A stretch of DNA of 64,000 nt from Alphaproteobacteria bacterium (GTDB lineage: Bacteria > Pseudomonadota > Alphaproteobacteria > Rs-D84), in assembly GCA_031555055.1 (NCBI GenBank), contig JAVBUT010000002.1:210165-274164 (forward strand), read 5' to 3'. The notes under the pieces were generated by a model that did not search any database, was not told the origin of the DNA, and saw nothing but the letters and a program-made list of their open reading frames with translations. Shown piece after piece: positions 590-49,303 of the stretch (its first letter is position 1; each line of letters starts with the position of its first letter). The position numbers and the translations under genes were made by a program.

Positions 590-1240
590 TTATTTTGATA
601 AAACCAAGTATTTTGGTGTGGCGGTACCAGCCATATTTTTTTTCTGATACCGGGTTTTTATAATTTCTGATTCCTGATTTCTGATTCCTAGCTTACTGTT
701 TTTAACCTGATCCATGATCCAGTCATAGTATTCATGATGATCTGTGCCAATTATAATGACGCCGTCATCCGTCAGACGCGTCGCCAACAGGTTTAAAAAT
801 TCTGTATTTAACAGTCGGCGCTTTTCATGTCGTGCCTTGGGCCATGGGTCAGGGTGCAGAATCCATATTTTATCGAATCGCATATCGATAAAATCCGGCG
901 ATTCGGATTGAAGGATTTTTCGCACATCGTCCGGCCAGATATACAGGCTTTTATATTCAGGCTTAACCGTATTGTCCGATTCGTTTGTTATCGCAGACAA
1001 TAAAGATGCCACACCGTTCATAAACGGTTCGGCACCGATGATAATCGAATCGGGGTTGGACAATGCCAGGCTGCGCACATGTTCGCCCGCGCCAAAACCG
1101 ATTTCCAAAATATTTTTCCCGGCCTTTTTGATCATTTTTGGCGAAACGGCCGGTAAAATGTTATCGGTCAAAAATTGCTGACGCGCGGAAATCCGTTTTC
1201 CATGCCTCCGCCCGAAAGTTCTTATTTCTTGTTTTTGCAT
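590..1240 (-). CDS. trmB: tRNA (guanine46-N7)-methyltransferase TrmB
   Basis: Motifs GFGAGEHV (SAM binding) and ILHPDPWPK...RRL typical of TrmB. ATG at 1238-1240. The track ORF extends further upstream but the conserved N-terminus starts at MQKQEIRTFGRR. Contains an in-frame GAATCAG-type heptamer triplet at 664-690. Confidence 0.85.
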   Translation of the reverse strand: MQKQEIRTFGRRHGKRISARQQFLTDNILPAVSPKMIKKAGKNILEIGFGAGEHVRSLALSNPDSIIIGAEPFMNGVASLLSAITNESDNTVKPEYKSLYIWPDDVRKILQSESPDFIDMRFDKIWILHPDPWPKARHEKRRLLNTEFLNLLATRLTDDGVIIIGTDHHEYYDWIMDQVKNSKLGIRNQESEIIKTRYQKKNMAGTATPKYLVLSK

Positions 1241-1254
1241 AGAATTAGTATAAA

Positions 1255-1791
1255 ATGCAAAACCATAGAGGACAAGAGATATTGTGGGATACAATAGAAA
1301 AAGAGAAAATGATGTTAGTAAAAATTATTGATGTTTGCTGGGACGGATGGGAACGGATTGATACCGGTGGTTTTAGTGCGAAAACAGATATGACGATTGA
1401 ACAACTGAATCAACAGATTGGTGCAATAAAACTGGACGAAGAGCCGAAAGAATATGAAAATAGAGACATACATTTTATTCAGGTCGTGCATTCCAGCCTG
1501 TGTGTGAACGCTGCGGAATGTAAACTTAAACAATATGGCGATGATTATCAAAAAAAATTAAACGAAAGTATTCATAATGTCGCCGGGATATTTTTTCACT
1601 GTGATAAATGGTGCGAAAAGGGCGATCCAGATGCAGCAAAATATGGTGTATCTGGAATTATGGGTAACAAAAATGCGATATGTAAAAAGAATTTTGGAAC
1701 AGAGAGATGTACATCTTTGGTTGGTCGTAGAATTGCAAATATAATGAAGCCAGGTTGTGTTCCATTGATTGATAATGCAAAGGAAAGATAA
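1255..1791 (+). CDS. hypothetical Cys-rich protein, AT-rich gene (possible start at 1309)
   Basis: ORF ends 4 nt before gltX. About 35% GC versus about 50% in flanking genes. No recognisable domain. Confidence 0.4.
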   Translation: MQNHRGQEILWDTIEKEKMMLVKIIDVCWDGWERIDTGGFSAKTDMTIEQLNQQIGAIKLDEEPKEYENRDIHFIQVVHSSLCVNAAECKLKQYGDDYQKKLNESIHNVAGIFFHCDKWCEKGDPDAAKYGVSGIMGNKNAICKKNFGTERCTSLVGRRIANIMKPGCVPLIDNAKER

Positions 1792-1794
1792 AAA

Positions 1795-3411
1795 ATGCGT
1801 AATGGCTTATCATCAGATTTAATTGCGCGCATATTGGGCGTGGCGCCAAAGTACACGATTGCGGAACTGGAACAAAAATTCCCGCCGCGCAATCTGCCGG
1901 ACGGCGCCATGGTGACCCGTGCGGCGCCCAGCCCAACTGGATTTATGCATTTAGGGAATTTGTACAGCATGCTGATTGATAAAAAGCTGGCCCAGCAATC
2001 GCACGGCGTTTTTATGCTGCGTATCGAAGATACCGATACGGATCGTGAAATCCCCGGTGCGGTCGATACGATTTTGGACATTGTTGAAAAGTTTAGGCTG
2101 GATATAGACGAAGGTGTTTTAAAAACCGGATTGGAAAAAGGCGCGTATGGGCCGTACACGCAATCACAACGCAAGGAAATTTATCATTCTGTGGCCGCCG
2201 AACTGTTGGCGACAGGCCGCGCGTATCCGTGCTTTTTGACATCGGATGAAATGAATGAAATTCGTGAAACACAAACCAAGGCCGGCATGCCGACCGGAAT
2301 TTATGGCGAATTCGCACGTGACCGGGATATGATGCCGGATGAAATTATTGCAAAAATTGATGCGGGCGTGGTGCCGTCGGTTCGTCTGTATTCGACAGGT
2401 GATCCATCCAAAAAGATTTTTTGCAAGGATGTTGCGCGCGGCTCAATCGCATTCCCGGAAAACAACGACGACGTGGTTTTAATAAAATCAAATGACGGAT
2501 TGCCGACATATCATTTTGCGCACTTGGTTGATGATCATTTTATGCGTACGACGAACGTTGTTCGCGGTGGGGAATGGTTGGCCTCGCTGCCGCTGCATAT
2601 TCAGATGTTCAATATGATGGGCTGGGCCGCGCCGGCGTATTCGCATACGGCGACAATTGACAAAATAGATGATGAGACAGGCAAACAGCGCAAATTATCC
2701 AAGCGCAAAGACCCCGAATCCAGCGTCGCGAACTTTATAACCGAAGGCTGGCCGATAGAGGCCGTATTGGAATACCTGTTCAATCTGGTGGCCAGCGGGT
2801 ATGAAGAAGAAAAAGTTAAAAATCCGTTGATGACCATTTGGGATTATGATTTAAAGTTAAAAAAATTATCGACCAGCGGTGCTTTGTTTGACTGGAAAAA
2901 GCTGGAATGGTGGGGAAAAGAATTTATTGCGACACTGCCGGTGTATGATCTGGTCAATCGCGTAATGGAATGGGTGCACGAATATTCGCCCCAGTGGCAT
3001 GAACGAATCGGGGACAAGATTGATTATCTGACCAAAATTTTGGCGATCGAACGCGATAATCCGAAACGTGTCCGCAAGGACTTTGTCACATGGAAGCAGA
3101 CATTGGAAGAAGTTGCATATTTCTTTGATGATATTTTTGAAAAATCAGAAATCGGAAATCAAAAATCAGAAATTAATAAAAATGCGCTGGATGCATTCCT
3201 GCGCGGGTTTGAATGGACTGACGACAAAGACACATGGTGGAATAAAATTGTAAAAATAGCGTCCGACATTGGTACTAAAAACGGCGATGTCGCGATGAGT
3301 TTGCGCGTCGCGTTAACCGGGCGCACAAACACACCCGATCTTTATTCGATCATGCAGGTCATGGGCGGTGAAAGGGTGATAAAACGCATAGGCAAAATTA
3401 TCAATGGTTAA
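1795..3411 (+). CDS. gltX: glutamate--tRNA ligase (class I, GluRS/GlnRS family)
   Basis: HIGH-type motif PSPTGFMHLGN and KMSKS-type motif KLSKRK. RBS AAGGAAAG upstream. In-frame heptamer insert at 3141-3177 encodes EKSEIGNQKSEI. Confidence 0.85.
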   Translation: MRNGLSSDLIARILGVAPKYTIAELEQKFPPRNLPDGAMVTRAAPSPTGFMHLGNLYSMLIDKKLAQQSHGVFMLRIEDTDTDREIPGAVDTILDIVEKFRLDIDEGVLKTGLEKGAYGPYTQSQRKEIYHSVAAELLATGRAYPCFLTSDEMNEIRETQTKAGMPTGIYGEFARDRDMMPDEIIAKIDAGVVPSVRLYSTGDPSKKIFCKDVARGSIAFPENNDDVVLIKSNDGLPTYHFAHLVDDHFMRTTNVVRGGEWLASLPLHIQMFNMMGWAAPAYSHTATIDKIDDETGKQRKLSKRKDPESSVANFITEGWPIEAVLEYLFNLVASGYEEEKVKNPLMTIWDYDLKLKKLSTSGALFDWKKLEWWGKEFIATLPVYDLVNRVMEWVHEYSPQWHERIGDKIDYLTKILAIERDNPKRVRKDFVTWKQTLEEVAYFFDDIFEKSEIGNQKSEINKNALDAFLRGFEWTDDKDTWWNKIVKIASDIGTKNGDVAMSLRVALTGRTNTPDLYSIMQVMGGERVIKRIGKIING

Positions 3412-7164: not shown

Positions 7165-7274
7165 CTAGCGTATAGCAAATAGCGAATAGTGTGTATCGCT
7201 TAGCTGTTTTTTTGATTGAATCTATGTGCTAATCACTATTCACTATACACTATATGCTATTTGCTATGTGCTAG
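7165..7274. repeat. family-A palindromic element (tagcNNatagc-type arms); imperfect inverted repeat
   Basis: ctagcgtatagcaaatagcgaatagtgtgtat versus the reverse complement of ctaatcactattcactatacactatatgctatttgctatgtgctag. Related copies at 13.47 kb and 45.85 kb. Confidence 0.6.
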
Positions 7275-8027: not shown

Positions 8028-8033
8028 AAAAAC

Positions 8034-8104
8034 GTGATTCGTGACTCGTGAATCGTAACTCGTCACGATAACCGCGAATCACGAATTACAAATCACGAGT
8101 TACA
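8034..8104. repeat. heptamer array: 4-5 copies of GTGAnTC followed by 4 inverted copies GAnTCAC, just upstream of tatA; four GANTC sites
   Basis: gtgattc gtgactc gtgaatc gtaactc gtcacga ... gaatcac gaattac aaatcac gagttac. 7-bp periodicity with an inverted-repeat centre. Confidence 0.6.
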
Positions 8105-8126
8105 AAGCGACCATAGGGAGCGTATT

Positions 8127-9597: not shown

Positions 9598-10767
9598 ATG
9601 ACAAAAAACATATATATGGACGCCGCCGCCAGCAGCCTGAAACCACAGTCTGTGATTGATGCGGAAATGGATTTTTTACAAAATCGTTATGCAAACGCCG
9701 GGCGTGGAATATGCGCGCGTGCATCCGCGGTTGACAATATGGTGGCGAATACCCGTGACGCGGTCCGTGATTTTATTGGCGCGTCAAAATCCGACCAAAT
9801 TATTTTTACATCCGGCACCACGGACGGGATGAATAAAATCGCCAAAATGTTAAAAACTTCGTTATCGTTTGACGACAATTCTTTGGTTATGGTGTCCGAT
9901 CTGGATCATCACAGCGCGCGCATGCCGTTTGAAGAAATGCGCCATGGTGCCGGACGTAATTTTGCTGTATGTCCATTGGACAAAGAATTTAACATTGATA
10001 CTGAAAATATCCCGGCCGCCGACGTATTCGTTATTACCGCTATGTCAAACGTGCTGGGGGCGCCCCAGGATGTAAAAAAAATTATATCTGCGGCCCGTGC
10101 AAAAAATCCAGACGTTATAACGGTTGTCGACGCCGCACAATATGTTGCGTATTTGCCAATTGACGTTGCCGATTGGGATTGTGACTTTTTATGTTTTTCC
10201 GGGCACAAGATCGGCGCGGATACAGGTGTTGGTATAATGTATATAAAAGAGCCGAAAAAATGGTTCCCGGCGGAACTTGGTGGGGGCATGGTGTCGCGAA
10301 TAACAGGATCGGACGGATCAAACGACAGCCGATGGATTTTTATGTCCGCACCAGAAAAATTCGAAGCGGGCACATTGCCGCTGACCCAGATCGCGGGGTT
10401 GGTTTCGGCGATAAGGAATCAGGAATCAGGAATCCGCCTCCGCAGATGCTTCGGCGGACAAGTCAGGGATCAGGGATCGAGAATTGTGAGGTATCTGCAT
10501 GATGAGTTGTCAAAAATTGATCGTATAAAAATAATTACCAAACCAGATGCGGCGGTTTTGACATTCGTGGTCGACGGTATGCATGTGCTGGATTTTGGGG
10601 CTTTGGTGGGTGCGTCGGGCGTATGTATCCGCGTTGGAAACATGTGTGCGTCATGGATACATCGTTTATTGGGACAAGACGGCACGATACGGATATCTTG
10701 TGGATTCTGGAACACAATGGATGAAGCAAACGATGTTATTGATATAATAAAAAAGATATTGAAATGA
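9598..10767 (+). CDS. sufS: cysteine desulfurase, class V aminotransferase (SufS/NifS-like)
   Basis: PLP-lysine motif SGHK, TSGTT and class-V pattern. Followed by DUF59 and SufE genes. Carries a composite repeat insert at 10415-10483. Confidence 0.8.
   Translation: MTKNIYMDAAASSLKPQSVIDAEMDFLQNRYANAGRGICARASAVDNMVANTRDAVRDFIGASKSDQIIFTSGTTDGMNKIAKMLKTSLSFDDNSLVMVSDLDHHSARMPFEEMRHGAGRNFAVCPLDKEFNIDTENIPAADVFVITAMSNVLGAPQDVKKIISAARAKNPDVITVVDAAQYVAYLPIDVADWDCDFLCFSGHKIGADTGVGIMYIKEPKKWFPAELGGGMVSRITGSDGSNDSRWIFMSAPEKFEAGTLPLTQIAGLVSAIRNQESGIRLRRCFGGQVRDQGSRIVRYLHDELSKIDRIKIITKPDAAVLTFVVDGMHVLDFGALVGASGVCIRVGNMCASWIHRLLGQDGTIRISCGFWNTMDEANDVIDIIKKILK
10415..10483. repeat. composite GAATCAG-heptamer/core element inserted in-frame in sufS; same core as the miaB copy
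   Basis: ggaatcaggaatcaggaatcc-gcctccgcagatgcttcggcggacaagtcagg-gatcagggatcgag. The reverse complement occurs at 26836-26896. Confidence 0.75.
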
Positions 10768-11103: not shown

Positions 11104-11133
11104 GAAATGAAAAATGAAGAATGAAAAATGAAT
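11104..11133. repeat. ATGAAAA-type heptamer tandem array overlapping the sufE start
   Basis: aaatgaaaaatgaagaatgaaaaatgaat. Confidence 0.6.
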
Positions 11134-11493
11134 AATTATTCGGAAATAAAAAAATTATTATCAAATATTGACGATCCGGTTATGAAACTGGAAGTCGTCA
11201 TGGACATGGGAGGACAATTACCGTCAATCCCATCGGATGCAGCATGCACAGAGATTTATGGTTGCGCATCGCGCGTGCAGATATGTCGTGTCGGGAATAA
11301 TTTTTACGGTGCTGCGGACTCTGCCTTGGTGCGTGGGATTGTCGCGGTGATTTTGTCCATGGTAGACGGCAAAACGCCGGATGAAATCAGAAAAATCAAT
11401 CTGCGCGCAGAGTTTTCCGGCCTGGGTCTGAACCTGGGGGCTGGGCGCTTGAACGGTGTCAATTCTATGATTAGTTTTTTAGAAAATTTATGA
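11128..11493 (+). CDS. sufE: cysteine desulfuration protein SufE
   Basis: Active-site motif YGCASRVQI (GC.S.V) and SufE length. Confidence 0.8.
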   Translation: MNNYSEIKKLLSNIDDPVMKLEVVMDMGGQLPSIPSDAACTEIYGCASRVQICRVGNNFYGAADSALVRGIVAVILSMVDGKTPDEIRKINLRAEFSGLGLNLGAGRLNGVNSMISFLENL

Positions 11494-11836: not shown

Positions 11837-13471
11837 ATGTTTGAAGTAGGAAGGGATATTTTAAAAGGTGGCTTTAAATCCGCGGGCGCGGATGTTGCGT
11901 CACGTGGTCGACTGCGCATTGTATATTCTTTGTTTGTCATCGCATTTTCCATTTTTATTGTGAAAACATTGTGGTTGGGGGTCCAGGGCACAGACCGCGC
12001 ACGCCGCGGCACCGGGGCGGGCGACTGGGTGGTTACGCGCGCCGACATCGTTGACCGAAACGGCGATATTCTGGCCAAAAACATAATGTCCGGGCATATT
12101 ACGCTACGTCCACAACTGGTCAAGGATCGCGATGCTGTCGCAAGATTGATACATCAGACTATGCCAATGGAATACAGTCTGTCGGACGCGCTGGGGATGA
12201 TGAATTCGTCCAGACGATTCATTTATGTTAAAAAGCTGGCCGATGATTCCGCACGCAACGCCGTGGCAAACGCAAAACTGGCGGGATTGGACATAGAGCA
12301 GGTTCAAATGCGTCGTTATCCAAAGCGCCGGCTGTTCTCGCACATTGTCGGATTTGTCGGAAATGACGGACATGGGTTGGAAGGCGCGGAAAGAATATAC
12401 GATAGCTATCTGTCTGAAAATAAAGACCCGTTGCGGCTGTCGCTGGATTCGCGTATACAGTCCGTGTTTTACGAACAGCTGTCCGCGGCAATGCACAAAT
12501 ACCAGGCGAATGCCGCAATGGGCATGCTGATGAACTCACGCACGGGGGAAATGTTGGCGATTGTATCTTTGCCGGACTTTGATCCGGAAAATATTGCGTC
12601 GTCGACAACAGCCAGCCGTATGTTCATGCCATTGCGCGGCGTATTCGAAATGGGGTCCATATTCAAGATATTCAACACTGCCATGGCGTTCGAAAACGGG
12701 ATAAATAAAAAATACTTTGTTGGTACGCCGTACAAGATACCGGACAAATTCGGACGCACGGCTGCGATCATCGGCGATGTCAGCAGTTTGAAAAAAGTCA
12801 CCGACGTGACACCGAATATGTCTGTTCCGGAAATTATGCTGTATTCATGCAACGCGGGGTCTGCCCAGATTGCGTTGGATTTGCCGGACGGGGCCCAGCG
12901 CGAATTCTTTTCACGAATTCATTTGGACGATGCGTTGGATTTGGAATTTGGCCGGACCGAGCGTACATTGTTGCCGATCAAATGGGGACCGGTGGAAAGG
13001 GCGACAGTATCTTTTGGTCACGGTGTATCTGTAACGCCGATGCACGTGATGCTGGGGGTGAACGCTATGACAAACGGCGGGATATTCATATATCCGACGT
13101 TGCAAAAGCGCAGCATTGGTGCCGTCCGCGGCGAACGTGTGGTGTCACCGGACATATCTGCGACATTGCGCGGGATAATGTTCCGCGTCGCAGAAGAAAC
13201 GACCGCGAAACAGGCCAGAATCGCCGGCATTAACATTGGTGGGAAAACATCGACTGCGGAAAAAAGAATAAACGGCGTGATCGATCATAAAAAGAATCTG
13301 ACAGCATTCGTTGGGGCATTTCCGATAGAGGCGCCACAATACACCATACTGATTGTTCTGGACGAACCAAAGGGAACCCAGGAATCATACGGTCTGCGCA
13401 CGGCTGCGTGGAATGCGGTTCCGACCGCCGGCAAGATACTGGACAGCGTGTTGCCAATGCTGTTTGATTAA
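11837..13471 (+). CDS. ftsI: peptidoglycan D,D-transpeptidase FtsI (PBP3)
   Basis: GSIFK (SxxK), YSCN (SxN) and KTST (KTG-like) motifs. N-terminal TM segment. Confidence 0.8.
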   Translation: MFEVGRDILKGGFKSAGADVASRGRLRIVYSLFVIAFSIFIVKTLWLGVQGTDRARRGTGAGDWVVTRADIVDRNGDILAKNIMSGHITLRPQLVKDRDAVARLIHQTMPMEYSLSDALGMMNSSRRFIYVKKLADDSARNAVANAKLAGLDIEQVQMRRYPKRRLFSHIVGFVGNDGHGLEGAERIYDSYLSENKDPLRLSLDSRIQSVFYEQLSAAMHKYQANAAMGMLMNSRTGEMLAIVSLPDFDPENIASSTTASRMFMPLRGVFEMGSIFKIFNTAMAFENGINKKYFVGTPYKIPDKFGRTAAIIGDVSSLKKVTDVTPNMSVPEIMLYSCNAGSAQIALDLPDGAQREFFSRIHLDDALDLEFGRTERTLLPIKWGPVERATVSFGHGVSVTPMHVMLGVNAMTNGGIFIYPTLQKRSIGAVRGERVVSPDISATLRGIMFRVAEETTAKQARIAGINIGGKTSTAEKRINGVIDHKKNLTAFVGAFPIEAPQYTILIVLDEPKGTQESYGLRTAAWNAVPTAGKILDSVLPMLFD

Positions 13472-13766
13472 CCATTAGCGCATAACAAATAGCGTATAGC
13501 GATTAGCAAATAGTTACAGGTGCGAACATTTTGTCGTCATACCGGCGACTTGTCCACCGAAGCCTTGGCGAAGGTCGGAGCGCCTGTATAACGACCAGTG
13601 TGAAATATTTTTATTTTTTACAAAATACCGAATTCGGGTTATTTAAAACACAAATTTTGGAACAGAATATAATAAATAGGAAACGTTTCTTTTGTAATAA
13701 AAGAGGCTTATTCCATAGAAGATGCTATGCGCTAATCGCTATACGCTATTTGCTATGCGCTAATGG
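13472..13766. mobile_element. MITE-like element: about 43-bp near-perfect terminal inverted repeats (family A, tagc-rich) flanking about 210 bp of non-coding sequence
   Basis: ccattagcgcataacaaatagcgtatagcgattagcaaatag at 13472-13514 versus the reverse complement of gctatgcgctaatcgctatacgctatttgctatgcgctaatgg at 13724-13766. The internal ORF 13531-13770 is judged spurious. Confidence 0.65.
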
Positions 13767-13840
13767 TTAATGACTATTAACTATTTGCTATTGATCATTT
13801 AATTGCTATAATAATTCCGATAAGAAAAAAAGAGATTACG

Positions 13841-15607
13841 TTGAGAAAGATAGTAGAAAGATCCATGCTGGGCAAAGCGTGGGTTTGCGCGACAGAGTAT
13901 GAAGAAAACACGCCCAGCAGTACGATTTTAAAAGAAGACTTGTTAAAGAAAATATTGGAATCGCGCGGCGTTCGTAGCGGGGTCGATACCAGCAAGTTTT
14001 TAAATCCCAGCATAAAAGAATACATGCCCGACCCCAGCGTGCTGGCCGATATGGATTCGGCGGCGCGTATAATTGTCGACAATATTGTCGCCGGGCGGAA
14101 AATTGCCATATACGGCGACTATGACGTGGACGGAATAACGTCCAGTGCGATCATGGTGAAATATCTGCGTGCGGTTGGCGCAAACGTCGTATGGCACCTG
14201 CCAACGCGCGAAGGCGAAGGGTATGGTCTGAACTGTGATGCCGTCAGTGCGATCGCCGCGGACGGGGTCAATCTGATCGTGACCGTCGATTGCGGAATCA
14301 GCGGCGTGGAAGAAATTGCGCTGGCTAAAAAACTGGGGCTGGATGTCGTTGTTACCGATCATCATTCGCCTGACGGGAATCTGCCGGCGGCCGACGCGGT
14401 CGTGAATCCCAAACGCCTGGACGATACGTCCGGGATGTCTTATCTGGCGGGTGTCGGCGTGGCTTTTATGACACTGGTCGCCGTGAATAGAGAACTGAAG
14501 TCCAGAAATGACGATAAATTCCAAATTCCGCATTCTTTATTTTTGATCGATCTGATGGATTTGGTCGCGCTGGGGACGATATGCGACACAATGCCGTTGG
14601 TGGGACTGAATCGTGCGTTTGCTGCGACCGGCCTGAAAGTTCTGGCCAAGCGAAACAATGTCGGCCTGCGCGCGTTGATGGATATTGCAGTAATTAAATA
14701 GCAGACCAAATACAGCGTGATGTTCGCGCTGGGGCCGCGGTTGAATGCGGCGGGCCGTCTGGATTCTGCGGCGCCGGCGCTGGAACTGTTGTTGACGGAC
14801 AATATACTGGTCGCGAACGATCTGGCGGCAAAATTAAACCGCATGAACCAGGAACGCATAGATGTTCAAAATGCAATCATGATAAGTGCGACCGAAATGG
14901 CCCAGAAATGTTGCGCTTTGGGAAAATGCAGCCTGTTCGTATGTGGCGATAACTGGCGCACTGGGGTTATGGGGATCATCGCCGGGCGGCTGAAAGACAA
15001 ATATAACCTGCCGACATGTGTTGCGACGAAATGCGACGGCGTGATTGACGGGTCCGGCCGTTCTATACCGGGCGTCGATCTGGGGCGCATTGTCCATGAT
15101 GCGGCGGCATTGGGAATAATCAGCGGCGGCGGCGGCCATGCGGCGGCGGCCGGGTTTACTTTGCCGGCAGAGAATGAACAGAAATTCTGCGAATTTTTGG
15201 AAAAATCCGTCTTGGCGCAGTTGGATGGGAAAATTCCGGAAAACGAAACGGTTGTTGATGCCGAAATGGATGCCGGTGGCGCAACGATGAAGCTGGTGGA
15301 ACAACTGGCGGAACTGGAACCGTTCGGCCAGGCCAATCCGGAACCGACACTGGTACTGCGTGGCGGGACATTGGCCCACGCGACGATAATGGGCAAGGGC
15401 GGAACGCACTTGCGCGGATATATCAATACAGGCAACGGATCGCGCCTGGCGTTTGTGGGATTTAATATGGTCGGGACGCCGGTCGGTGATTTTTTGCTGG
15501 ACGATGCGCATACAAATACTAAAATGATGATGTTGGGAAAGTTAAAGGAAAACGAATACCAAGGCCGCGTATCGGCACAGTTCATTTTGGAAGACTTGGC
15601 AATTTAA
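13841..15607 (+). pseudogene. recJ: recJ single-stranded-DNA exonuclease interrupted by an in-frame TAG at 14699-14701 (two ORFs 13841-14701 and 14717-15607 in the same frame)
   Basis: DHH motifs (YGDYDVDG, DHH) in the first part. Conserved FALGPRLNAAGRL and DHHA1 region in the second part. The frames are identical and separated by a single amber codon. Confidence 0.6.
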
Positions 15608-15637
15608 TGAAGAATGAAAAGTGAAAAATGAAAAATT
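15606..15637. repeat. ATGAAAA-type heptamer array immediately after the recJ stop
   Basis: aatgaagaatgaaaagtgaaaaatgaaaaatt. Confidence 0.55.
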
Positions 15638-15685
15638 AAATTCATTTTGACTTAATGGTTTTTCAAAATAAAAAAAGGAACAGAT

Positions 15686-16312
15686 ATGAAATTTTTTTTA
15701 AAGTCATTATTCATTGTTAGTTTTTCATTTTTTATTCCGACATTTGCGTATGCGTCGGTTGACAAGGCTTTGGTGGATTCGGCTGAAACTTATCTGAATT
15801 CTATCACCGGGCTGAACGGAAAATTTACACAGAATGCGAACGGCAAGAAAAGCAATGGGACATTCGACATGCTGCGCCCGGGCAAAGTTCGCCTGGATTA
15901 CAAAGACATGCCGGTACAGTTGATATCGGACGGTCAGGATTTGTATTTCTTTGACAAGTCGCTGGACCAGATCACGACCGTGCCGCTGACCAGTACGCCG
16001 GCCGGGATATTGGTACGCAAGAACATCAATTTACGCAATGCGGATATCAAGGTAACCGAAACAAAACAGAATGCCAAGACTTTCGCGCTGACCATGCATA
16101 TGCGCGATAATGAAGGTGTCGGCAAAATGACTGTCGTATTCGACAATGCGCCGATAAAGCTGAATTCATGGACGGTGTCGGACGCCACAGGGACCAAGAC
16201 GGATGTGGTATTCAACGATCTGAAAACAAAAACCGATTTTGCAAAAAACTATTTCCAGATACAGCGTCACAAGACTGCGACTACATCCGGCGGCGACAGC
16301 TATTATGATTAA
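15686..16312 (+). CDS. lolA: outer-membrane lipoprotein carrier protein LolA
   Basis: Signal peptide plus LolA pattern F.Q.......G.....RPG..R..Y......SDG..LY.FD..L.Q.T. Confidence 0.7.
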   Translation: MKFFLKSLFIVSFSFFIPTFAYASVDKALVDSAETYLNSITGLNGKFTQNANGKKSNGTFDMLRPGKVRLDYKDMPVQLISDGQDLYFFDKSLDQITTVPLTSTPAGILVRKNINLRNADIKVTETKQNAKTFALTMHMRDNEGVGKMTVVFDNAPIKLNSWTVSDATGTKTDVVFNDLKTKTDFAKNYFQIQRHKTATTSGGDSYYD

Positions 16313-24600: not shown

Positions 24601-26163
24601 ATGAGAAATTTAGTCGTATTTTTATTAATGATGACCGTGGGCTTTGGCGCGCCGGCCAATCAGCCGGTTTATATCGATTCGATTATCGTCGGAAAAAATC
24701 TGGATATATTCGATAACACCGTTATAACAAAACAATCAATAGTTGATGTGGATCGTGTAAATATTATAGACACCGTATATTTGGATAACCGTGGCAATAT
24801 TTATGGCGATATTTTTATCCGGGACGGATATATGCTGACACTGCGCAACAGCGGTATGATTTCCGGGGCTGTGCATACCGGTGAAAATTCGCATCTGGTC
24901 CAGGTGATAAAAACACAGAACGACATTACACAGCTTAATGCGCCTGATTCCGGTTTTTCAATATTGGTGCAGAATAAAGAGCCGCTAAAACTGTCCGACA
25001 TTATCGGGATATCTGTCGGTGCGGATCGGATAGTCTTGGACGGTGCATCCATATTTATTTCGCCGGCGCCGATCGCCAAGACATTGCGCGCAACGGCGGA
25101 ACCGAATATAGAACTGGTCGGCGAAACAATTGTTAAAATCCCAAATGCCAAAAACATGGATGGCAAAATGATCCTGTCAAATGTATCCGGCGATGGCGTG
25201 ATTCTGGTACAGGATACAGGCCTGGGGCCTTTGTACGCGGCGACGGCGGTTCGTCGTGAAGACGGGATATATCTGCATGTTGCGCGCGAAACAGATTATG
25301 GCAAAATACTGGGCGCGGGGCGTGGCGCATTTATAGATAAATTGCGTAATATTGATCCGGAAAATAAAACGATATTGGCGCTGGATCGTGCGGCCGATAT
25401 GAATGAATTTCAAAGATTCGCCGCGTCATCCGCCTTGCTGAATCCGATAAATTTGATACGTCCGGTGAAAATATTTAACAAGTTCGAAACATCCGGATTT
25501 TTATCCATGGACGAAGTATCCGGATTGGAACCAATTTGTATAACATCCGACTGGTTGGATTTGTACGCCGCGAAATTACGCGCAGCTTTTAATATCGATA
25601 ATTTCAATATCGCTGTGAACGCCTATGCCGGCGGTTTTGATTCCAATACCGATCTGGATAGTTTTTCAGGTAATTTTTACGGTGGAAATATTGATTTTAT
25701 ATTTTCATACAAATCCTTGTGGATAGACTCTGGTCTGGGGTTCACGGTATCAAGATTTGAAACTGGCGCAATATTTGACGGTAATGATTTCGTATATGAT
25801 CCCAGCGGGATTTCAATTTACGGCGTGGCGGATATCGGGTACAGGTTTGATTTAAATAATGATTTTTATGTATCGCCGTTTGTCGGTTTTGGCGCGGAAT
25901 ATGATTCTGTTTTGTATCAAGACGACACATCGGTATTTGCGCGCGCGGGCGCATATGCCGGATACTCATTCAATGAAATCGGAATCAAATACGATTATCA
26001 TATTTTTGCAATGGCGCAAACGGACGAAACGGTCATGACCGGAATTAGAATGAGTTTCTGGTCTGTCGTCGACCGCATGGGCGGCGATATTTCGTATGCA
26101 ATATCAGATGACGAAGTTGGGATTTCGCATAAATTTTCTGCCGGAATCAGATTTATGTTTTAA
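24601..26163 (+). CDS. outer-membrane protein with autotransporter-like C-terminal beta-barrel domain
   Basis: Signal peptide. C-terminal about 250 aa show alternating aromatic/hydrophobic beta-strand pattern ending in the terminal F (SAGIRFMF). Confidence 0.5.
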   Translation: MRNLVVFLLMMTVGFGAPANQPVYIDSIIVGKNLDIFDNTVITKQSIVDVDRVNIIDTVYLDNRGNIYGDIFIRDGYMLTLRNSGMISGAVHTGENSHLVQVIKTQNDITQLNAPDSGFSILVQNKEPLKLSDIIGISVGADRIVLDGASIFISPAPIAKTLRATAEPNIELVGETIVKIPNAKNMDGKMILSNVSGDGVILVQDTGLGPLYAATAVRREDGIYLHVARETDYGKILGAGRGAFIDKLRNIDPENKTILALDRAADMNEFQRFAASSALLNPINLIRPVKIFNKFETSGFLSMDEVSGLEPICITSDWLDLYAAKLRAAFNIDNFNIAVNAYAGGFDSNTDLDSFSGNFYGGNIDFIFSYKSLWIDSGLGFTVSRFETGAIFDGNDFVYDPSGISIYGVADIGYRFDLNNDFYVSPFVGFGAEYDSVLYQDDTSVFARAGAYAGYSFNEIGIKYDYHIFAMAQTDETVMTGIRMSFWSVVDRMGGDISYAISDDEVGISHKFSAGIRFMF

Positions 26164-27575
26164 ACAATCTCCCCGCGCAGTGACGATTTATTAGCAGCAG
26201 TGATTTTAATGTTTTGCAGGGGCGAATCATTAGTGTCGCAACACGCGCTTACGACCACCTGCTGCATATACGGGGTACGAAATATCAGATTATTTCCGGT
26301 TTTGTCGGGTCCTTCGGTCAGACATTCAAAAGTTTTTCCAACGCATGATTCGTTAAATTCGCGCTGCAGATCGTTCAGGTATCCGTCCAGAATTTTCAGA
26401 CGTTCGCGTTTTTCCGGTTCAGAAATCTGATCCTTCATCAGTGCCGCCGCGGTATGGGGGCGGGGCGAATATTTGAACGAATAAGAATTTATATAACGAA
26501 CGCGTTTTGCGATTTCCATGGTTTTTGCGAAATCCGCGTCCGTCTCGCCAGGGAATCCGACGATAAAGTCCGACGATATTTGGATGTCCGGCCGCGCCGC
26601 GCGCAAACGGTCCACAATATCAATATACAGTTCCAAAGAATAAGGCCTGTTCATGCGGGTCAGAACATTCTGTGATCCGCTTTGGATCGGCAGGTTTAAA
26701 AACGGCAGTAATTTTGGTTCCGTCCGGAACAGGTCGATCAGATCATCTGTCATCTCGGTCGGATAGCTGGAAGTGAATCTTATGCGCTGTATCTGGGGCA
26801 GGGTGGCGGTTTCTTTGATAAGATCGGATAATGTACTGATTTCTGATTCCTGACTTGTCCGCCGAAGCATCTGCGGAGGTGGATTCCTAATTCCTTTATA
26901 CCCGTTCACATTTTGCCCCAGGAAACAAATTTCGATCGCGCCGGTTTCGGCGGCATGGCGGACATCGCGCATAACGCCATCGAATGGTCGCGACAGTTCT
27001 GGTCCGCGCGTGTATGGCACGATACAGTACGTGCAGACGTGGTTACAGCCTTCTTGGATCGGGATATATGCGATGGCCGGCGATGATGACATTTGGGGCA
27101 ACTCGTCGAATTTTTCAAGCCCACCAAGATCGACGTTTAATAAACGTGTGTCCGGATTGTCGATAATTTCCGGCAATTTGTGATAACTCTGTGGTCCCAA
27201 GACAAAATTTAATTCTGGTATTCTGCGGAATGCGTCGGCGCCGCTTTCGCGTGCGACACATCCGACAATGCCAAACAGCGCGTCCGGCTTTTTTGCCAAA
27301 CGGATTCGCCCCAGTGCACTGAACACTTTATTGGTCGCTTTTTCGCGCACGGAACAAGTGTTCAGAATAATCAGATCGGCATTCACGATTTCTGATGTTT
27401 CCGTCCAGCCGCGTTGTATTAACATGCTTGCGATACGCTGGCCGTCATAGACGTTCATCGCACAACCAAAGGTTTGGATGTGGAACAAATTCCCCGCCTG
27501 GGGCGGGGTGCCGTCGCCGTTATGCGTGGCGGGGTGGGTTAAAGAATTCGAAATATCCAATTTGTTTTTTTTCAT
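26160..27575 (-). CDS. miaB: tRNA-2-methylthio-N6-dimethylallyladenosine synthase MiaB (radical SAM)
   Basis: MTTase N-domain FHIQTFGCAMN, radical-SAM CNHVCTYC and TRAM domain. In-frame composite repeat at 26836-26896 encodes GIRNPPPQMLRRTSQESEI. Confidence 0.85.
   Translation of the reverse strand: MKKNKLDISNSLTHPATHNGDGTPPQAGNLFHIQTFGCAMNVYDGQRIASMLIQRGWTETSEIVNADLIILNTCSVREKATNKVFSALGRIRLAKKPDALFGIVGCVARESGADAFRRIPELNFVLGPQSYHKLPEIIDNPDTRLLNVDLGGLEKFDELPQMSSSPAIAYIPIQEGCNHVCTYCIVPYTRGPELSRPFDGVMRDVRHAAETGAIEICFLGQNVNGYKGIRNPPPQMLRRTSQESEISTLSDLIKETATLPQIQRIRFTSSYPTEMTDDLIDLFRTEPKLLPFLNLPIQSGSQNVLTRMNRPYSLELYIDIVDRLRAARPDIQISSDFIVGFPGETDADFAKTMEIAKRVRYINSYSFKYSPRPHTAAALMKDQISEPEKRERLKILDGYLNDLQREFNESCVGKTFECLTEGPDKTGNNLIFRTPYMQQVVVSACCDTNDSPLQNIKITAANKSSLRGEIV
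26836..26896. repeat. composite GAATCAG-heptamer/core element inserted in-frame in miaB (reverse orientation of the sufS copy)
   Basis: ctgatttctgattcctgacttgtccgccgaagcatctgcggaggtggattcctaattcc. The core matches 10426-10462 with 1 mismatch. Confidence 0.75.
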
Positions 27576-32521: not shown

Positions 32522-32815
32522 TTATTCATCCATTACCTTGGGCACGGCGAAGTATCCGCGGGATGTGCCGGCGTTGTCCGGCGTGCTTTTTAAAACCGCG
32601 TCGCGGATATTGCCGTCGGTGACGATATCGGCGCGGGTCGGTGCGGCGTGTTGGGCCGGGGTGAACATGGGTTCAATACCAGTTGTATCGATTTTTTTCA
32701 ACATGTCCATCCAGCCGAAAACTTGATCAATGTTCATCTCGGCCAATTTATCATCCGGGATTTCAATCCGGATCAGCGATGTGAATTTTTGCAATTGCTC
32801 TTTGGTGAATGCCAT
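32522..32815 (-). CDS. gatC: Asp/Glu-tRNA amidotransferase subunit C
   Basis: 97 aa, begins MAFTKEQLQKF. Immediately upstream of gatA. Confidence 0.75.
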   Translation of the reverse strand: MAFTKEQLQKFTSLIRIEIPDDKLAEMNIDQVFGWMDMLKKIDTTGIEPMFTPAQHAAPTRADIVTDGNIRDAVLKSTPDNAGTSRGYFAVPKVMDE

Positions 32816-32865
32816 TTTTATTACTCTGTATTTGCTATTTGGTAAAATTGTCATATAATGATACT

Positions 32866-33345
32866 ATGATTTTGGCAGATTTCAAGGATTTTCCCCGACA
32901 GGGTCGGGTTATTGGAATAGACTGGGGCGCGCGACGTATCGGCGTCGCGGTGTCTGACGAATCTCGCGAATTTGTGTTCACGCGGGACGTGATAACAATC
33001 AGGAATCGGGAATCCACCGTTGCCAAGGCTTTGGCGGACAAGCCAGGAATCGGTGAAATTATAAAATTGGTAAAATCCGAAAAAATCGTCGGGATAATAA
33101 TCGGCTTGCCGGTGCATGCCGACGGGACGGACTCGGCGACGACAAAAATGGTTCGCGAATTCGCGGACGAATTGTCCGGTCAGACGGATTTGCCGGTCGT
33201 ATTTATCGAAGAGAATTTAACATCGGTCGCCGCAGCGGAGAGGAGTCAGGAGTCAGGAATCAGGAACAAGAATTTTTCGATTGATTCAGAGTCTGCGAAA
33301 ATAATACTGGAAAACGCAATCGCGATGATACGACGAATGGGATAG
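32866..33345 (+). CDS. ruvX: YqgF/RuvC-like Holliday-junction resolvase / pre-16S rRNA nuclease
   Basis: Motifs GIDWGARRIGVAVSD and IIGLP. Two in-frame heptamer triplet inserts at 32996-33017 and 33239-33267. Confidence 0.75.
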   Translation: MILADFKDFPRQGRVIGIDWGARRIGVAVSDESREFVFTRDVITIRNRESTVAKALADKPGIGEIIKLVKSEKIVGIIIGLPVHADGTDSATTKMVREFADELSGQTDLPVVFIEENLTSVAAAERSQESGIRNKNFSIDSESAKIILENAIAMIRRMG

Positions 33346-40739: not shown

Positions 40740-40743
40740 ATTA

Positions 40744-40773
40744 AATGAAAAATGAAAAATGAAAAGTGAAAAA
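40744..40773. repeat. ATGAAAA-type heptamer array between the TcpQ-like gene and the secretin gene
   Basis: aatgaaaaatgaaaaatgaaaagtgaaaaa. Confidence 0.55.
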
Positions 40774-40828
40774 TAATTCCTTGGTCATTGCATTTTTCCA
40801 AAGACTTGAAACACATAGGTGAGAGAAT

Positions 40829-42436
40829 ATGTACAAGATATTAAAAGTACTTTTCATTTTTAATTTTTCCTTTTTCATTTTGACTGGGTGCGTAAAGAAG
40901 GAATCCGCCCAGGTGGCGTCCGCCGTCGACCAGGACTTTGTCAATGCGCACGATGCGTTCGAAATGGCGAAAAATCCGCGCGCCAAGGTTACCAGCACCG
41001 ATACCGTGTCAATGTCCGAAGGTGTTTGGCTGGGGGCGAAATCCACTTTGCTGGAACATAAAAACAATTTGCCGGGCACATACGAAAATGACACAGGTGT
41101 GACAATCCTGTTGAATGAGCCCGTATCGTTACAGGTTTTGGCCAACAATATTTCATCCATAACGAATATTCCTGTCAAAATCGACAGCCAGGTAAATACT
41201 GAAAAATTAAAAAAGACCATGAATATTGCCTATACCGGCAAGTTGTCTGGTTTGCTGTCCCAGGTTTCGACAGATCTGGATTTGTTGTGGTATTACGACA
41301 AAAGCTCTATCGTGTTTTATGAAACGGAAACAAAAACATTCACACTGTATGCGCTGGGGACGGATGTCGCGTACCAGTCTGTAATCCGTACGGATGACGG
41401 CAACGGCGTTTCATTGGAATCTAATTTAAAAGAATGGGAAGAAGTCGAACGCACGATCGGATCGATTGTCGGCAAAACAGCGAATGCAAACTTTACCGTA
41501 TCTAAAAGCTTGGGCACGATCACGGTTACCGCGCCGCCTTCGATCCAGCACCGCGTCAGCGAATACATCGCACGCCAGAACAAGCGTTTGTCCCAGCTGG
41601 TGACGATCGACGTAAAGGTTCTGCAGGTGTCCATGAACAACAACACCGCGTTTGGCCTGAACTTGGCGATGGCGATTAATTCTGCGGCGGGTCTGAATAT
41701 CGTTGCGAATCCGAAAAACAATCTGCAAACCACCGAAGCCAGCACAATGAATGTCGCGGTGCTGTCGGGATTGTCATTTGCGGACGCTGCAGGCAAGGTT
41801 CCGGCAGGCGCTACACCGGACCAGATCAATTCGGGCAGTCTGAAAAATATCGCAGGAACTGATGCGCTGATCAGTGCGCTGGCCAAGCAAGGCAAAATAT
41901 CGCTGGTGACGAACGTTGGGGTTACGACACGCAACAACCGCGTCGCCCCGGTCAGCAACACCCGCACAACCGGATATATCAAACGTTTTGAATCACGCAA
42001 TTTTACAACTGTCGAATCCAGCACTGTGGACCAGGATGATTTGGAAACAGGATTCAGCATGCAGCTGTTGCCTAATGTTCTGGAAAATGGAAAAATCTTG
42101 TTACTGTTCAAAATGTCGATTCGTGAACTGTTGCAGATGCAGACGCAGAAAATCGGCGAAGTGACATTGCAGTTGCCAGACGTAGAAGAGCGCAGCTTTA
42201 TGCAGGAAGTAATTATGGAATCCGGCCAAATGCTGGTTCTGTCGGGATTTGAACGTCAGACGAACAATGATACGCGTTATGGCTTGGGCGATCCGGACTT
42301 TATGGCGCTGTCGGGTTCGCGCGAATCCCAATCGACCAAGGACGTTTTGGTTGTCATCCTGACACCGCAAGTACTGGTCAGCCCGATGGATGCAGAGCGG
42401 TCTATCCAGCAAAACTGGGGCGCACCACTAAATTAA
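40829..42436 (+). CDS. lipoprotein secretin (type IVb pilus TcpC/BfpB-like, GspD/PilQ superfamily)
   Basis: Lipobox ILTGC. C-terminal secretin domain with conserved ending ...STKDVLVVILTPQVL. Confidence 0.65.
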   Translation: MYKILKVLFIFNFSFFILTGCVKKESAQVASAVDQDFVNAHDAFEMAKNPRAKVTSTDTVSMSEGVWLGAKSTLLEHKNNLPGTYENDTGVTILLNEPVSLQVLANNISSITNIPVKIDSQVNTEKLKKTMNIAYTGKLSGLLSQVSTDLDLLWYYDKSSIVFYETETKTFTLYALGTDVAYQSVIRTDDGNGVSLESNLKEWEEVERTIGSIVGKTANANFTVSKSLGTITVTAPPSIQHRVSEYIARQNKRLSQLVTIDVKVLQVSMNNNTAFGLNLAMAINSAAGLNIVANPKNNLQTTEASTMNVAVLSGLSFADAAGKVPAGATPDQINSGSLKNIAGTDALISALAKQGKISLVTNVGVTTRNNRVAPVSNTRTTGYIKRFESRNFTTVESSTVDQDDLETGFSMQLLPNVLENGKILLLFKMSIRELLQMQTQKIGEVTLQLPDVEERSFMQEVIMESGQMLVLSGFERQTNNDTRYGLGDPDFMALSGSRESQSTKDVLVVILTPQVLVSPMDAERSIQQNWGAPLN

Positions 42437-42565: not shown

Positions 42566-42570
42566 AATTT

Positions 42571-42620
42571 AGTCAATAGTCTTTAGTCACTAGTAGGGGC
42601 GCATATTTGCGCCCGTATGT
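42571..42620. repeat. family-B half element (tagtca repeats + taggggcgcatatttgcgccc hairpin)
   Basis: agtcaatagtctttagtcactagtaggggcgcatatttgcgcccgtatg. Compare 62397-62544. Confidence 0.6.
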
Positions 42621-44867: not shown

Positions 44868-44979
44868 AACGCCCAACGGGCGTTCTTTATTTTAATATTC
44901 AAAGTGCAATTGAACTTTGCACTTTGAACTTTGTACATTTTATGATATGATACAGCCATAACATAGGTGGGGAAATTTC

Positions 44980-45845: not shown

Positions 45846-45931
45846 ATTAGCTCATAGCAAATAACATATAGTGTTTAGCGTATAGTATATTGTTAATCGC
45901 TATGCGCTATATGCTATGGACTATGCGCTAG
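45846..45931. repeat. family-A palindromic element (tagc-rich inverted repeat)
   Basis: ttagctcatagcaaataacatatagtgtttagcgtatag ... ctatgcgctatatgctatggactatgcgctag. Confidence 0.55.
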
Positions 45932-46973: not shown

Positions 46974-47315
46974 ACATCGTAATGTCAATACAGTGTCTAT
47001 ACACGTGGCGGAAATCCGGTAAAAAACCGAATCGGTGTCAAAAAATAAATCTGAAATTTTTCGACCAGAAAAACTTGCAAATCAAAAATAATCTTATAAC
47101 TTAACTGACGTATCCAAACGATTGAGAAATCAATCAGAATATGAACGATAAAGGTTGTAAGAAAAAACAATTTTTTTAATGGCTAAATAAAACCGCCGGT
47201 AAAAAAATTGTTTTTTTCTTAGGTGGTTTTTACAGCCTTGATCAGGATGCGGCAGGAAACTCTGGGGTTGGGCGATATCTGTTGTCGCCATTGGGAACAG
47301 GAAAGGAGAAACAGC

Positions 47316-48590: not shown

Positions 48591-48598
48591 TTCCGAAT

Positions 48599-49227
48599 TG
48601 GGTAGCGCGACCTTGTCCCAAGGTCGCACGTGACAACCTTGGGACAAGGTTGTCCTACCATTTTCAAGTTAAATGAAAAAATGCAAAACGATGATATATT
48701 TTTCAGAAAGAAATTAGATCATGAAATTCCATATTGGGTTAAGTCGGATTCAATATTTTTTATAACAATAAATACATTGCCACGTGGAAAAAATAATCTT
48801 GCGACTTTTAATATTTCGAAAATAATTAGAGATAGTCTGCGATTTTATCAATCAAAAGGTTTGATATATGTTGAATATTTACTGCTGATGCCGGATCATT
48901 TGCATATGCTGGTCGCATTTAATGATATCCCTATGGAAAAATTTATACAACAATGGAAAAAATATATTTCCAGAAATACAAAGGTTGAATGGCAGCGTGA
49001 TTTTTTTGATCATCGGATACGAAATGGCGAATCTTTGCAAGAAAAAATAGATTATATATCAAATAATCCAGTTCGTAAAAATTTTGTGGTTAATTCGTTT
49101 GATTGGAAGTATCAGTGGTTGAGAGGGATGCATGAATTATCAGATTTTGATTTAGGATCATAATTAGGCATGACCGGTTTGTCCCAAACTGGTCATGTGC
49201 GACCTTGGGGACAAGGTCGCGCTACCC
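48599..49227 (+). mobile_element. REP-RAYT-REP unit: IS200/IS605-like HUH tyrosine transposase (RAYT) flanked by inverted pairs of REP hairpins
   Basis: Left gggtagcgcgaccttgtcccaaggtcgc + gacaaccttgggacaaggttgtc. Right catgaccggtttgtcccaaactggtcatg + gcgaccttggggacaaggtcgcgctaccc. The outermost arms are mutually inverted. Confidence 0.7.
48681..49163 (+). CDS. REP-associated tyrosine transposase (RAYT, IS200-like TnpA)
   Basis: HUH motif MPDHLHMLV. RAYT-type motif WQRDFFDHRIRN with downstream catalytic Tyr region (EKIDYISNNP). About 30% GC. Confidence 0.7.
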   Translation: MQNDDIFFRKKLDHEIPYWVKSDSIFFITINTLPRGKNNLATFNISKIIRDSLRFYQSKGLIYVEYLLLMPDHLHMLVAFNDIPMEKFIQQWKKYISRNTKVEWQRDFFDHRIRNGESLQEKIDYISNNPVRKNFVVNSFDWKYQWLRGMHELSDFDLGS

Positions 49228-49303
49228 GAGAGCGCTTCACTAAAGGACTTTTATTATACGGTTTTTTCTGATATAATGTCAGCATCAAATAGGGAGTTTT
49301 AGG

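Follow-up and report, generated by a model that had tools for sequence, protein, structure and literature searches.

Heptanucleotides form the most abundant class of long simple-sequence repeats (SSRs), and slippage tied to the footprint of the polymerase has been proposed for them, according to the work of Mrazek (2007) as cited in PMC4679880 and PMC4692102. Here we describe tandem arrays of 7-nucleotide (nt) units in a 64-kb stretch of DNA, hereafter the window, from an uncultured alphaproteobacterium (assembly GCA_031555055.1, contig JAVBUT010000002.1, positions 210,165 to 274,164 of the forward strand); several of these arrays are translated in frame within housekeeping genes. The arrays are probably slippage-driven heptanucleotide microsatellites, that is long SSRs, which are filtered by selection and belong to one clade of gut Alphaproteobacteria.

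The closest described systems are found in Xanthomonas and Nostoc. In Xanthomonas, 89-93% of the GGGAATC repeats are intergenic and 7-11% intragenic, and 70-75 convergent inverted pairs are formed per genome (PMC4692102); in Nostoc PCC 7120 the heptamer is GGGGA(C/T)T (Rehm et al. 2015, PMC4692102). The arrays described here resemble both in being tandem 7-nt units in 2 to more than 10 copies, spread genome-wide, mostly intergenic and within about 50 nt of the ends of open reading frames (ORFs), with frequent convergent inverted pairs, an intragenic minority, turnover of length and sequence among relatives, and neighbouring genes without a functional theme; one of the window units, (A/G)GGAATC, is nearly identical to the Xanthomonas unit GGGAATC. 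Unlike those systems, they occur in small-genome gut Alphaproteobacteria, many unit families coexist in place of one dominant G-rich unit, the units mostly lack quadruplex G-tracts, and the coding arrays lie within essential housekeeping enzymes, in internal loops where orthologues carry arrays again. The G-quadruplex class GGGNATC, defined by at least four units each with GGG, is not what the window contains: GGG is present in single units only, and the units are mostly AGGAATC, AAATCAG, AAATGAA, TTAGTCA and similar.

Repeats of TAACTGA are known from marine Beggiatoaceae, Cyanobacteria and Bacteroidetes, where ORF-internal copies encode LSVISYQ at protein edges (MacGregor 2015, PMC4679880). 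Both there and in the window, heptamer direct repeats are mostly intergenic and near ORF ends, adopt a stop-free orientation within ORFs and encode a peptide with a 7-residue period. TAACTGA, however, is a single unit across phyla, is placed mostly just upstream of start codons, and has its ORF-internal cases at protein termini or in hypothetical proteins, whereas the window has a variety of units, arrays paired in inverted orientation, and tracts within conserved enzymes, at internal loops. The short tandemly repeated repetitive (STRR) heptamers of Calothrix and Anabaena, which Mazel and colleagues are said to have described in 1990, reportedly comprise several coexisting families, in tandem at many loci, with TTGGTCA as one of the units. 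The window likewise holds several heptamer families in tandem at many loci, and TTGGTCA occurs in it as a variant unit at 62410-62416; STRRs differ in being cyanobacterial, described as intergenic and used mainly as typing markers.

Two further classes of repeat enter reading frames. Rickettsia palindromic elements (RPEs) are dispersed palindromic mobile elements of about 100-150 bp, with a consensus, that lie in frame in housekeeping genes. RPEs and the present tracts have in common that alphaproteobacterial repeat DNA is tolerated in frame in surface regions of conserved proteins, but the coding tracts are 18-35 nt long, purely tandem and without common flanks. Phase-variable contingency loci likewise have SSRs within reading frames, such that gain or loss of a single unit would put the sequence out of frame. 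The present hosts (gltX, trmB, ruvX, uvrC, sufS and a miaB-like gene) are instead essential housekeeping genes with no surface or virulence association; their tracts are internal, short and degenerate, and loss of the frame would be harmful, not adaptive. With heptanucleotide SSRs the arrays share tandem units, over-representation, and dispersal with an intergenic bias. Repeats of this kind, in-frame ORF-internal cases and inverted intergenic pairs included, are already described; what is new is the lineage and the contrast between a heptamer-rich clade and its heptamer-poor sister clade.

Heptanucleotide arrays in the window

A period of 7 nt is in clear excess in the window. Exact self-matches of at least 10 nt at lag 7 number 6, against 0.1 in dinucleotide shuffles; a mismatch-tolerant scan gave 16 arrays of period 7 and 17 of period 14, with 0-5 for neighbouring periods within the range 3-13, and Tandem Repeats Finder (TRF) returned more than 25 arrays of period 7 or 14. 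Only 7 and its multiples (14 and 21) show this excess. Combined, TRF and our own scan place 2.6-12 copies of a 7-nt unit, head-to-tail, at 23 or more sites. Higher-order periods of 14 nt are frequent among the arrays, as would be expected from multi-unit slippage. The units are many and unrelated (AAATGAA, TTAGTCA, GCTATNC, CGTGAYT, CGAACCT, AGGAATC and others). Although the window is 86% coding, 10 of the 16 period-7 arrays are intergenic and 6 are coding; over 222 kb of clade sequence, array density is 12.5 per 10 kb between genes versus 2.1 in coding sequence (about 6-10 times).

The coding tracts are not a product of chance. The RGAATCR doublet RGAATCRRGAATCR, with at most one mismatch, occurs 9 times where 0.39 would be expected; all nine are intragenic and all nine are in sense orientation. 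The complementary unit TGATTCC (complement of GGAATCA) contains TGA; the sense-only orientation would be expected if only stop-free units can persist within genes. Five coding tracts had been picked out in a sequence-only reading of the window (3141-3177, 664-690, 32996-33017, 33239-33267 and 56988-57010); each was found at its place, in genes whose assignment to gltX, trmB, ruvX and uvrC is borne out by Pfam, and with the peptides given at the time (EKSEIGNQKSEI in gltX, GIRNQESEII in trmB, IRNRES and ERSQESGIRN in ruvX, and SNLEPQT in uvrC). To these we add tracts in a SufS-like and a MiaB-like gene, a second uvrC tract at 57242-57255, and TTTTCAT arrays in two signal peptides, one from LolA and one from a secretin, in which T-rich arrays encode the hydrophobic cores. 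Apart from the signal peptides, the coding tracts are delimited as follows.

663 to 689, minus strand: tract in trmB (gene 590-1294, minus strand), AGGAATC/AGAAATC, 3.9 units with a perfect 14-nt period, encoding GIRNQESEI
3142 to 3176, plus strand: tract in gltX (gene 1795-3411), AAATCAG, about 5 units, encoding KSEIGNQKSEI, without GANTC
10414 to 10478, plus strand: tracts in a SufS-like cysteine desulfurase gene (9598-10767), (AGGAATC)x3 at 10414-10434, perfect, and (TCAGGGA)x2.3 at 10463-10478, together encoding IRNQESGI...VRDQGS
26836 to 26853, minus strand: tract in a MiaB-like radical-SAM gene (26160-27575, minus strand), GGAATCAGAAATCAG, 2.6 units, encoding SQESEIS
32996 to 33053, plus strand: tract 1 in ruvX (gene 32809-33345), AATCAGG AATCGGG AATCC (IRNRES), then about 28 nt of non-repeat DNA and a second CAGGAATCGG copy
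33241 to 33266, plus strand: tract 2 in ruvX, AGGAGTC AGGAGTC AGGAATC AGGAA, encoding RSQESGIRN
56987 to 57010, minus strand: tract in uvrC (gene 56562-58019, minus strand), (CGAACCT)x3.4, encoding SNLEPQT, without GANTC
57242 to 57255: second coding tract in uvrC, a doublet

The gltX tract occupies a variable loop between FFDDLF and NKxxL, and the uvrC tract at 56987-57010 a variable linker ahead of the LIIVDGG motif. Run lengths in coding sequence vary from 2.6 to 5 units, which is at odds with the earlier proposal that runs come in multiples of three units. UvrC itself has 485 amino acids compared with a typical length of about 600; some 110 of the residues that separate the UVR motif from the RNase H-like endonuclease domain are missing, and this short form (477-492 amino acids) is common to a few database relatives.

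The contig is metagenome-assembled and repeats are prone to mis-assembly, yet it is scarcely conceivable that the arrays are an artefact of assembly or sequencing: all host genes are open and align end to end with their orthologues, the first 7.6 kb are identical in a separate Logan assembly, independent metagenome-assembled genomes (MAGs) of other studies carry arrays at the same loops, and the tracts, at 18-83 nt, are well within read length.

A different origin was implied by the description of the tracts as GANTC-bearing, namely that housekeeping genes received a specific 7-nt module with this site in groups of three (21 nt), and that the module has a functional link to CcrM-type methylation. 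Such methylation is expected in an alphaproteobacterial host, the commonest coding variant, GGAATCA, contains GAATC, as does the Xanthomonas unit GGGAATC, and 14 of the 217 GANTC sites of the window lie inside heptamer arrays, which cover 1.3% of it. Nevertheless, GANTC is carried only by the GGAATC and GGAGTC variants. The gltX tract at 3141-3177 consists of GAAATC units and has zero GANTC, the uvrC tract likewise has zero, and so do the arrays that relatives carry at the same loops (AATCAGC, AAGGCAG, GCACAGA, AGAGAGC and GAATTTT); most arrays lack the site altogether, and they are mostly intergenic with unrelated units. Over the whole window, the 217 observed GANTC sites compare with 219.6 expected under a third-order Markov model (ratio 0.99), and no CcrM-type gene (N6_N4_Mtase, PF01555) was found among the predicted genes of the window. 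Together with net length changes that are never +7 amino acids (see below), these data leave the GANTC/CcrM link unsupported and make the module a very improbable source of the tracts.

The four forms of GANTC are unequally represented in the window: GAGTC (5) and GACTC (7) are about 10-fold below the base-composition expectation of about 60 each, with GAATC at 110 and GATTC at 95. CTNAG is also very rare (15), and two of the five GAGTC sites fall within the ruvX tract. The rarity of GAGTC, GACTC and CTNAG suggests restriction-site avoidance.

Recurrence at orthologous loops within one clade

Alignment of the host proteins confirmed that the tracts are translated in frame within conserved housekeeping proteins, and that orthologues outside the clade do not have them. 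The tracts had been called inserted triplets. Some net gain is indeed seen at gltX, ruvX tract 1 and SufS, but it never equals 7 amino acids, so that this description holds only in part and discrete 21-nt insertions are not supported. Net length changes in amino acids are listed below; on these figures a rule of +21 nt per insertion was rejected. Relatives are denoted by L and a number.

trmB tract against orthologues: 0, with GIRNQESEI in place of SATIPDMEI-type sequence
ruvX tract 2 against orthologues: 0, the GIRNK part being common to some orthologues
uvrC tract against relatives: 0 to +4
gltX tract against both the consensus and L091, which is the closest relative: +4
ruvX tract 1 against orthologues: a loop of +10, including the non-repeat DNA (about 28 nt) between the two CAGGAATCGG copies
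SufS-like tract against orthologues: an inter-helix loop of +9 to +12

Part of the +10 insert of ruvX (33019-33039, GTTGCCAAGGCTTTGGCGGAC, VAKALAD) matches lolA 15758-15778 at 18 of 21 positions and in the same frame (VDKALVD), with a chance expectation of 0.01. Each copy lies just 3' of a heptamer array and the lolA copy is conserved among orthologues; the match could reflect a short patch copied from a template, or mere chance.

Every coding tract falls where its protein family is hypervariable and where other relatives have unrelated indels. In the AlphaFold model of RuvX (159 amino acids, mean predicted local distance difference test score, pLDDT, of 80.7), the only long segments with a score below 50 are residues 48-58 and 129-136, which in this predicted structure correspond to tract 1 and tract 2, respectively; the SufS tract aligns with an inter-helix loop of solved cysteine desulfurases. 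Arrays recur at these loops in other genomes, as follows.

gltX loop: array in the window (AAATCAG), L085 (AATCAGC/AATCAGA), L087 (AATCAGC) and L007 (AAGGCAG); no array in L091, L044, L012 and L022
trmB loop: array in the window and L022; no array in the others checked
SufS loop: array in the window (AGGAATC), L091 (GCACAGA x4) and L082 (AGAGAGC x7.5, encoding AESREQRAESREQRAE)
ruvX loop 1: array in the window and L083 (AAATCAG x4.5)

The arrayless gltX loops of L012 and L022 retain a proto-repeat, AAATCCG...GAAATTA. Presence and absence of arrays at orthologous loops cut across the tree, and the units vary between genomes; this pattern points to repeated birth, homogenisation and death of microsatellites at a few permissive sites, and is a poor fit with a single ancestral insertion.

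By its GltX homologues, the best of which is about 69% identical, the organism belongs with uncultured gut Alphaproteobacteria close to Candidatus Enterousia. One complete circular genome of this group measures 0.96 Mb, and some isolate names, such as Nt197P3 and Lab288P3, may be those of termite-gut samples. Relatives were surveyed through 80 gltX-centred loci, in samples of about 20 kb that were set beside the window. Among the 80 loci, the period-7 excess is confined to a few alphaproteobacterial MAGs and, independently, one Clostridia MAG (L080). In a neighbour-joining tree of gltX the heptamer-rich genomes form a single clade, (L091, window), (L044, (L087, (L007, (L012, (L022, L085))))), which is sister to about 50 heptamer-poor genomes. 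Period-7 arrays occur at 2.75 per 10 kb in the rich clade versus 0.18 in 50 loci of the sister clade (Candidatus Enterousia-like), whereas periods 6, 8 and 9 have similar densities in the two; further contigs of clade members are richer still, with 7 arrays in 4.4 kb of L082 and 13 arrays in 21 kb of L090.

The uncultured Clostridia MAG is an independent occurrence of the inverted-pair architecture: between positions 7306 and 19760 of L080, GTGAGAA/GTGTGAG arrays with inverted partners about 37 nt off occupy five intergenic spacers within 13 kb.

Slippage and selection as the probable origin of the arrays

In the explanation that we favour, the clade would have a strong, genome-wide bias toward tandem duplication of 7-nt units, generated by slipped-strand mispairing during replication or repair, and the resulting arrays would then expand, contract and homogenise. 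Intergenic arrays, the majority, would often become inverted pairs with long hairpins just past stop codons, and selection would purge nearly all intragenic arrays. The arrays that remain in coding sequence have four traits in common: the unit is stop-free in every phase of the sense strand, the overall reading frame is kept, the 7-residue periodic peptide (e.g. E-S-G-I-R-N-Q) is tolerated, and the array sits in a surface loop or linker of high variability or, where the unit is T-rich, in a signal peptide. What the data establish is the excess of period 7, its confinement to a single clade, the bias toward spacers, the placement in loops and the return of arrays to orthologous loops; slippage as the source and selection as the sieve are inferences.

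Several points weigh against this explanation. Differences in copy number were seen between species but not between strains, where all four available pairs (L087/L088, L085/L086, L083/L084 and window/L001) are 99.96-100% identical and gapless; the members of each pair were probably assembled twice from one sample. Plain slippage would lengthen a tract by 7n nt, whereas three tracts exchange the ancestral loop at unchanged length and none adds 21 nt; for such zero-length replacement, compensating deletions or a templated 'overwriting' must be assumed. The RGAATCR / AATCAGN family dominates the coding tracts of the window and recurs across genomes, in coding and intergenic arrays alike, a dominance that random seeding does not obviously predict. 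Neither the unit length of 7 nt nor the restriction to one clade is accounted for by slippage, and the evidence comes from one 64-kb window and the 20-kb samples of relatives.

Loss of recJ was considered as a cause of the bias and rejected, because RecJ is intact in the heptamer-rich L089, L090 and L091 as well as in heptamer-poor relatives. The recJ gene of the window (13841-15607) has a single in-frame TAG at 14699-14701, between LMDIAVIK and QTKYSVMF, where the orthologues (578-590 amino acids) are intact in rich and poor relatives alike; it could mark a pseudogene, a sequencing error or a read-through codon.

Inverted pairs, REP elements and the meaning of the arrays

Intergenic arrays typically start 0-30 nt past a stop codon, and many are arranged as inverted pairs. 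The intergenic arrays of the window, with the signal-peptide arrays that pair with them, are listed below; AAATGAA is also the unit at 11105, and CGCTATG and TTGAACT are among the further units.

15606 to 15736, plus strand: inverted pair of AATGAAA x5 (15606-15640), after the recJ stop codon, and TCATTTT x4.7 (15704-15736), in the LolA signal peptide; the pair brackets the ribosome-binding site (RBS) and start codon of lolA
40743 to 40881, plus strand: inverted pair of AAATGAA x4.6 (40743-40774), after the upstream stop codon, and TTTTCAT x4.4 (40851-40881), in the lipoprotein signal peptide of the secretin gene 40829-42436; fold z-score -3.25
50760 to 50984: the largest array, AAATGAA x11.9 (50760-50842), with inverted TTTTCAT x4.3 (50955-50984), between convergent genes and beside their terminator hairpins
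62396 to 62544: TTAGTCA x4.7 (62396) and inverted TGACTAA/TGACTAT x6.3 (62501), flanking an inverted pair (REPIN) of GTAG-headed repetitive extragenic palindromes (REPs), upstream of dnaN (62639-63757)
8033 to 8106: CGTGAYT x4.4 and inverted TCACGAA-type arrays (8033, 8077), a hairpin 6 nt past the stop of a SPOR-domain gene; fold z-score -4.13
13469 to 13784: TTAGCGC/ATAGCGN array (13469-13507) and inverted GCTATNC array (13724-13784), in the spacer between a penicillin-binding protein (PBP) gene and recJ
7229 to 7273: CTATNCA and CTATNTG arrays, intergenic, upstream of the SPOR-domain gene
11105 to 11136, 42568 to 42594, 44910 to 44933 and 45898 to 45930: other intergenic arrays

Upstream of dnaN, at 62376-62544, a terminator hairpin is followed by a predicted multi-branched structure (-73.2 kcal/mol, z-score -11.6) in which the inverted heptamer arrays enclose the REPIN and a third small hairpin; this structure had no match in Rfam. 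Searches with Rfam and for tRNAs, aimed at known RNAs between inverted arrays, returned just two tRNAs, both elsewhere. One layout recurs: an array follows the upstream stop codon, then come the RBS and start codon, and an inverted array lies in the signal peptide of the secreted protein. It is found at lolA (15606-15736), at the secretin gene (40743-40881) and at a lipoprotein-like ORF in L012 (3960-4103), and a pair so placed could sequester the translation start. In the suf operon of L082 (1519-2449), every spacer from sufS to FeS_assembly_P to sufE to the next gene has an inverted heptamer pair, each with another unit (AATTGAT, AGCTATC and GATTGCT), and AACGAAA x4.7 lies in frame inside the FeS_assembly_P gene.

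These arrangements bear on the possibility that the arrays are kept for a function, the intergenic pairs serving as terminators, mRNA-stabilising hairpins or translational switches and the coding tracts as selected flexible linkers; in the switch version, the pairs would sequester the RBS and start codon of secreted-protein genes. The positions just past stop codons, as in Xanthomonas, and the RBS-bracketing layout would agree with this, and inverted pairs fold more stably than shuffled sequence, with z-scores of -4.1, -3.3 and -11.6; the lolA pair, however, is no better than its shuffles (z-score -1.8). Units and copy numbers vary freely across orthologous sites and genomes, the sister clade manages without arrays, the coding tracts occupy unconserved loops of low confidence, and no function was found in the cases studied elsewhere (PMC4692102). 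We therefore regard retention for a function as unlikely.

A second alternative concerns mobile elements. A gene for a REP-associated tyrosine transposase (RAYT) lies at 48630-49163, directly downstream of dnaA (47223-48590); it scores 87 bits with NCBIfam NF047646, for which the cutoff is 80, and matches the TnpA-REP structure PDB 4ER8 with E = 6e-8. Inverted GTAG-headed REPs (GGTAGCGCGACCTTGTCCCAAGGTCGCAC) flank it at 48602(+), 48658(-) and 49225(-), within the region 48598-49230; the listed GTG start at 48630 falls inside a REP, which makes a start further downstream probable. A second REP family, GTAGGGGCGC-ATATTT-GCGCCC, has eight intergenic copies (8549, 8606, 42593, 53082, 53130, 54305, 62427 and 62502), some of them in inverted doublets (REPINs). 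The window thus has a Y1/HUH transposase gene, flanking inverted GTAG palindromes and more REPs between genes, as expected of a REP/RAYT system. At 42593, 62427 and 62502 a TTAGTCA-type array abuts the 5' GTAG head of the REP in phase (e.g. TTAGTCA...TTAGTAG joined to GGGCGC); the 5' flank of the REP at 8549 (AACCGTA-type) is an imperfect in-phase case with a final spacing of 6 nt.

The arrays might accordingly have been made or spread by a mobile-element enzyme, for which the HUH/Y1 nuclease of the RAYT is the best candidate, or else by a tiny dispersed element like the small dispersed repeats (SDRs) of cyanobacteria. Heptamer-rich Xanthomonas strains also have RAYTs and GTAG-REPs (PMC2817692; PMC4692102), and Nostoc punctiforme, a relative of the heptamer-rich PCC 7120, is listed with a RAYT (PMC3116915). 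Beyond the bona fide RAYT with its inverted GTAG-REPs, this idea draws on the in-phase junctions, at 3 or more of the 8 GTAGGGGCGC copies, on two loci that share one array-plus-REP unit, on the presence of [AT]TAG within many intergenic units and on the recurrence of one unit family at many sites in several genomes. The density of GTAG-REPs, moreover, differs about 70-fold between heptamer-rich loci (21 in 203 kb) and poor ones (2 in 1408 kb), compared with 5 versus 24 for a control tag; this co-occurrence is, however, confounded by phylogeny, the rich loci belonging to one clade. Several array-rich stretches have no REP at all, namely L007/L089 (about 32 kb non-overlapping, with at least 10 arrays), L022, L082, L087 and L091, such that REP/RAYT as a necessary local partner of the arrays is not supported, though it might still act at the level of the genome, and neither the coding tracts nor the AAATGAA arrays adjoin REPs. 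To our knowledge, many RAYT-bearing bacteria (E. coli, Pseudomonas) have not been reported as heptamer-rich, and we know of no IS200/IS605-type enzyme that produces 7-nt tandem duplications. On balance, an enzyme of this kind is an improbable maker of the arrays.

A related proposal is that a clade-specific determinant makes 7-nt duplications and spreads arrays, including into coding loops; it could be a variant of the replisome or of repair, or else the RAYT/REPIN HUH nuclease. We hold this to be rather doubtful; if true, the in-phase array/GTAG junctions would be footprints of that activity.

The replication genes dnaA, gyrB (51093-53120, minus strand) and dnaN all lie in the window, with 14 kb between dnaN and dnaA. 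Of 16 window blocks, 15 have a positive GC skew and one, at 36-40 kb, a slightly negative one; the cumulative skew has no sustained reversal near dnaA and thus gives no indication of an origin at this gene.

Slippage filtered by selection is the reading that we retain as probable. No other class of long microsatellite is as over-represented in bacteria as heptamers, and the contrast of about 15-fold between a monophyletic clade and its well-sampled sister could allow comparative genomics to seek the determinant. As about 50 small (about 1 Mb) sister genomes are without the trait, the two clades would, if such a determinant exists, form a natural knock-out in which to trace what causes the heptamer bias. 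There are also consequences for the annotation, alignment and phylogenomics of these MAGs and for estimates of frameshift load. For the proteins concerned, the arrays mean that microsatellites can settle, and recur, in internal loops of essential enzymes (GltX, RuvX, UvrC, TrmB and SufS).

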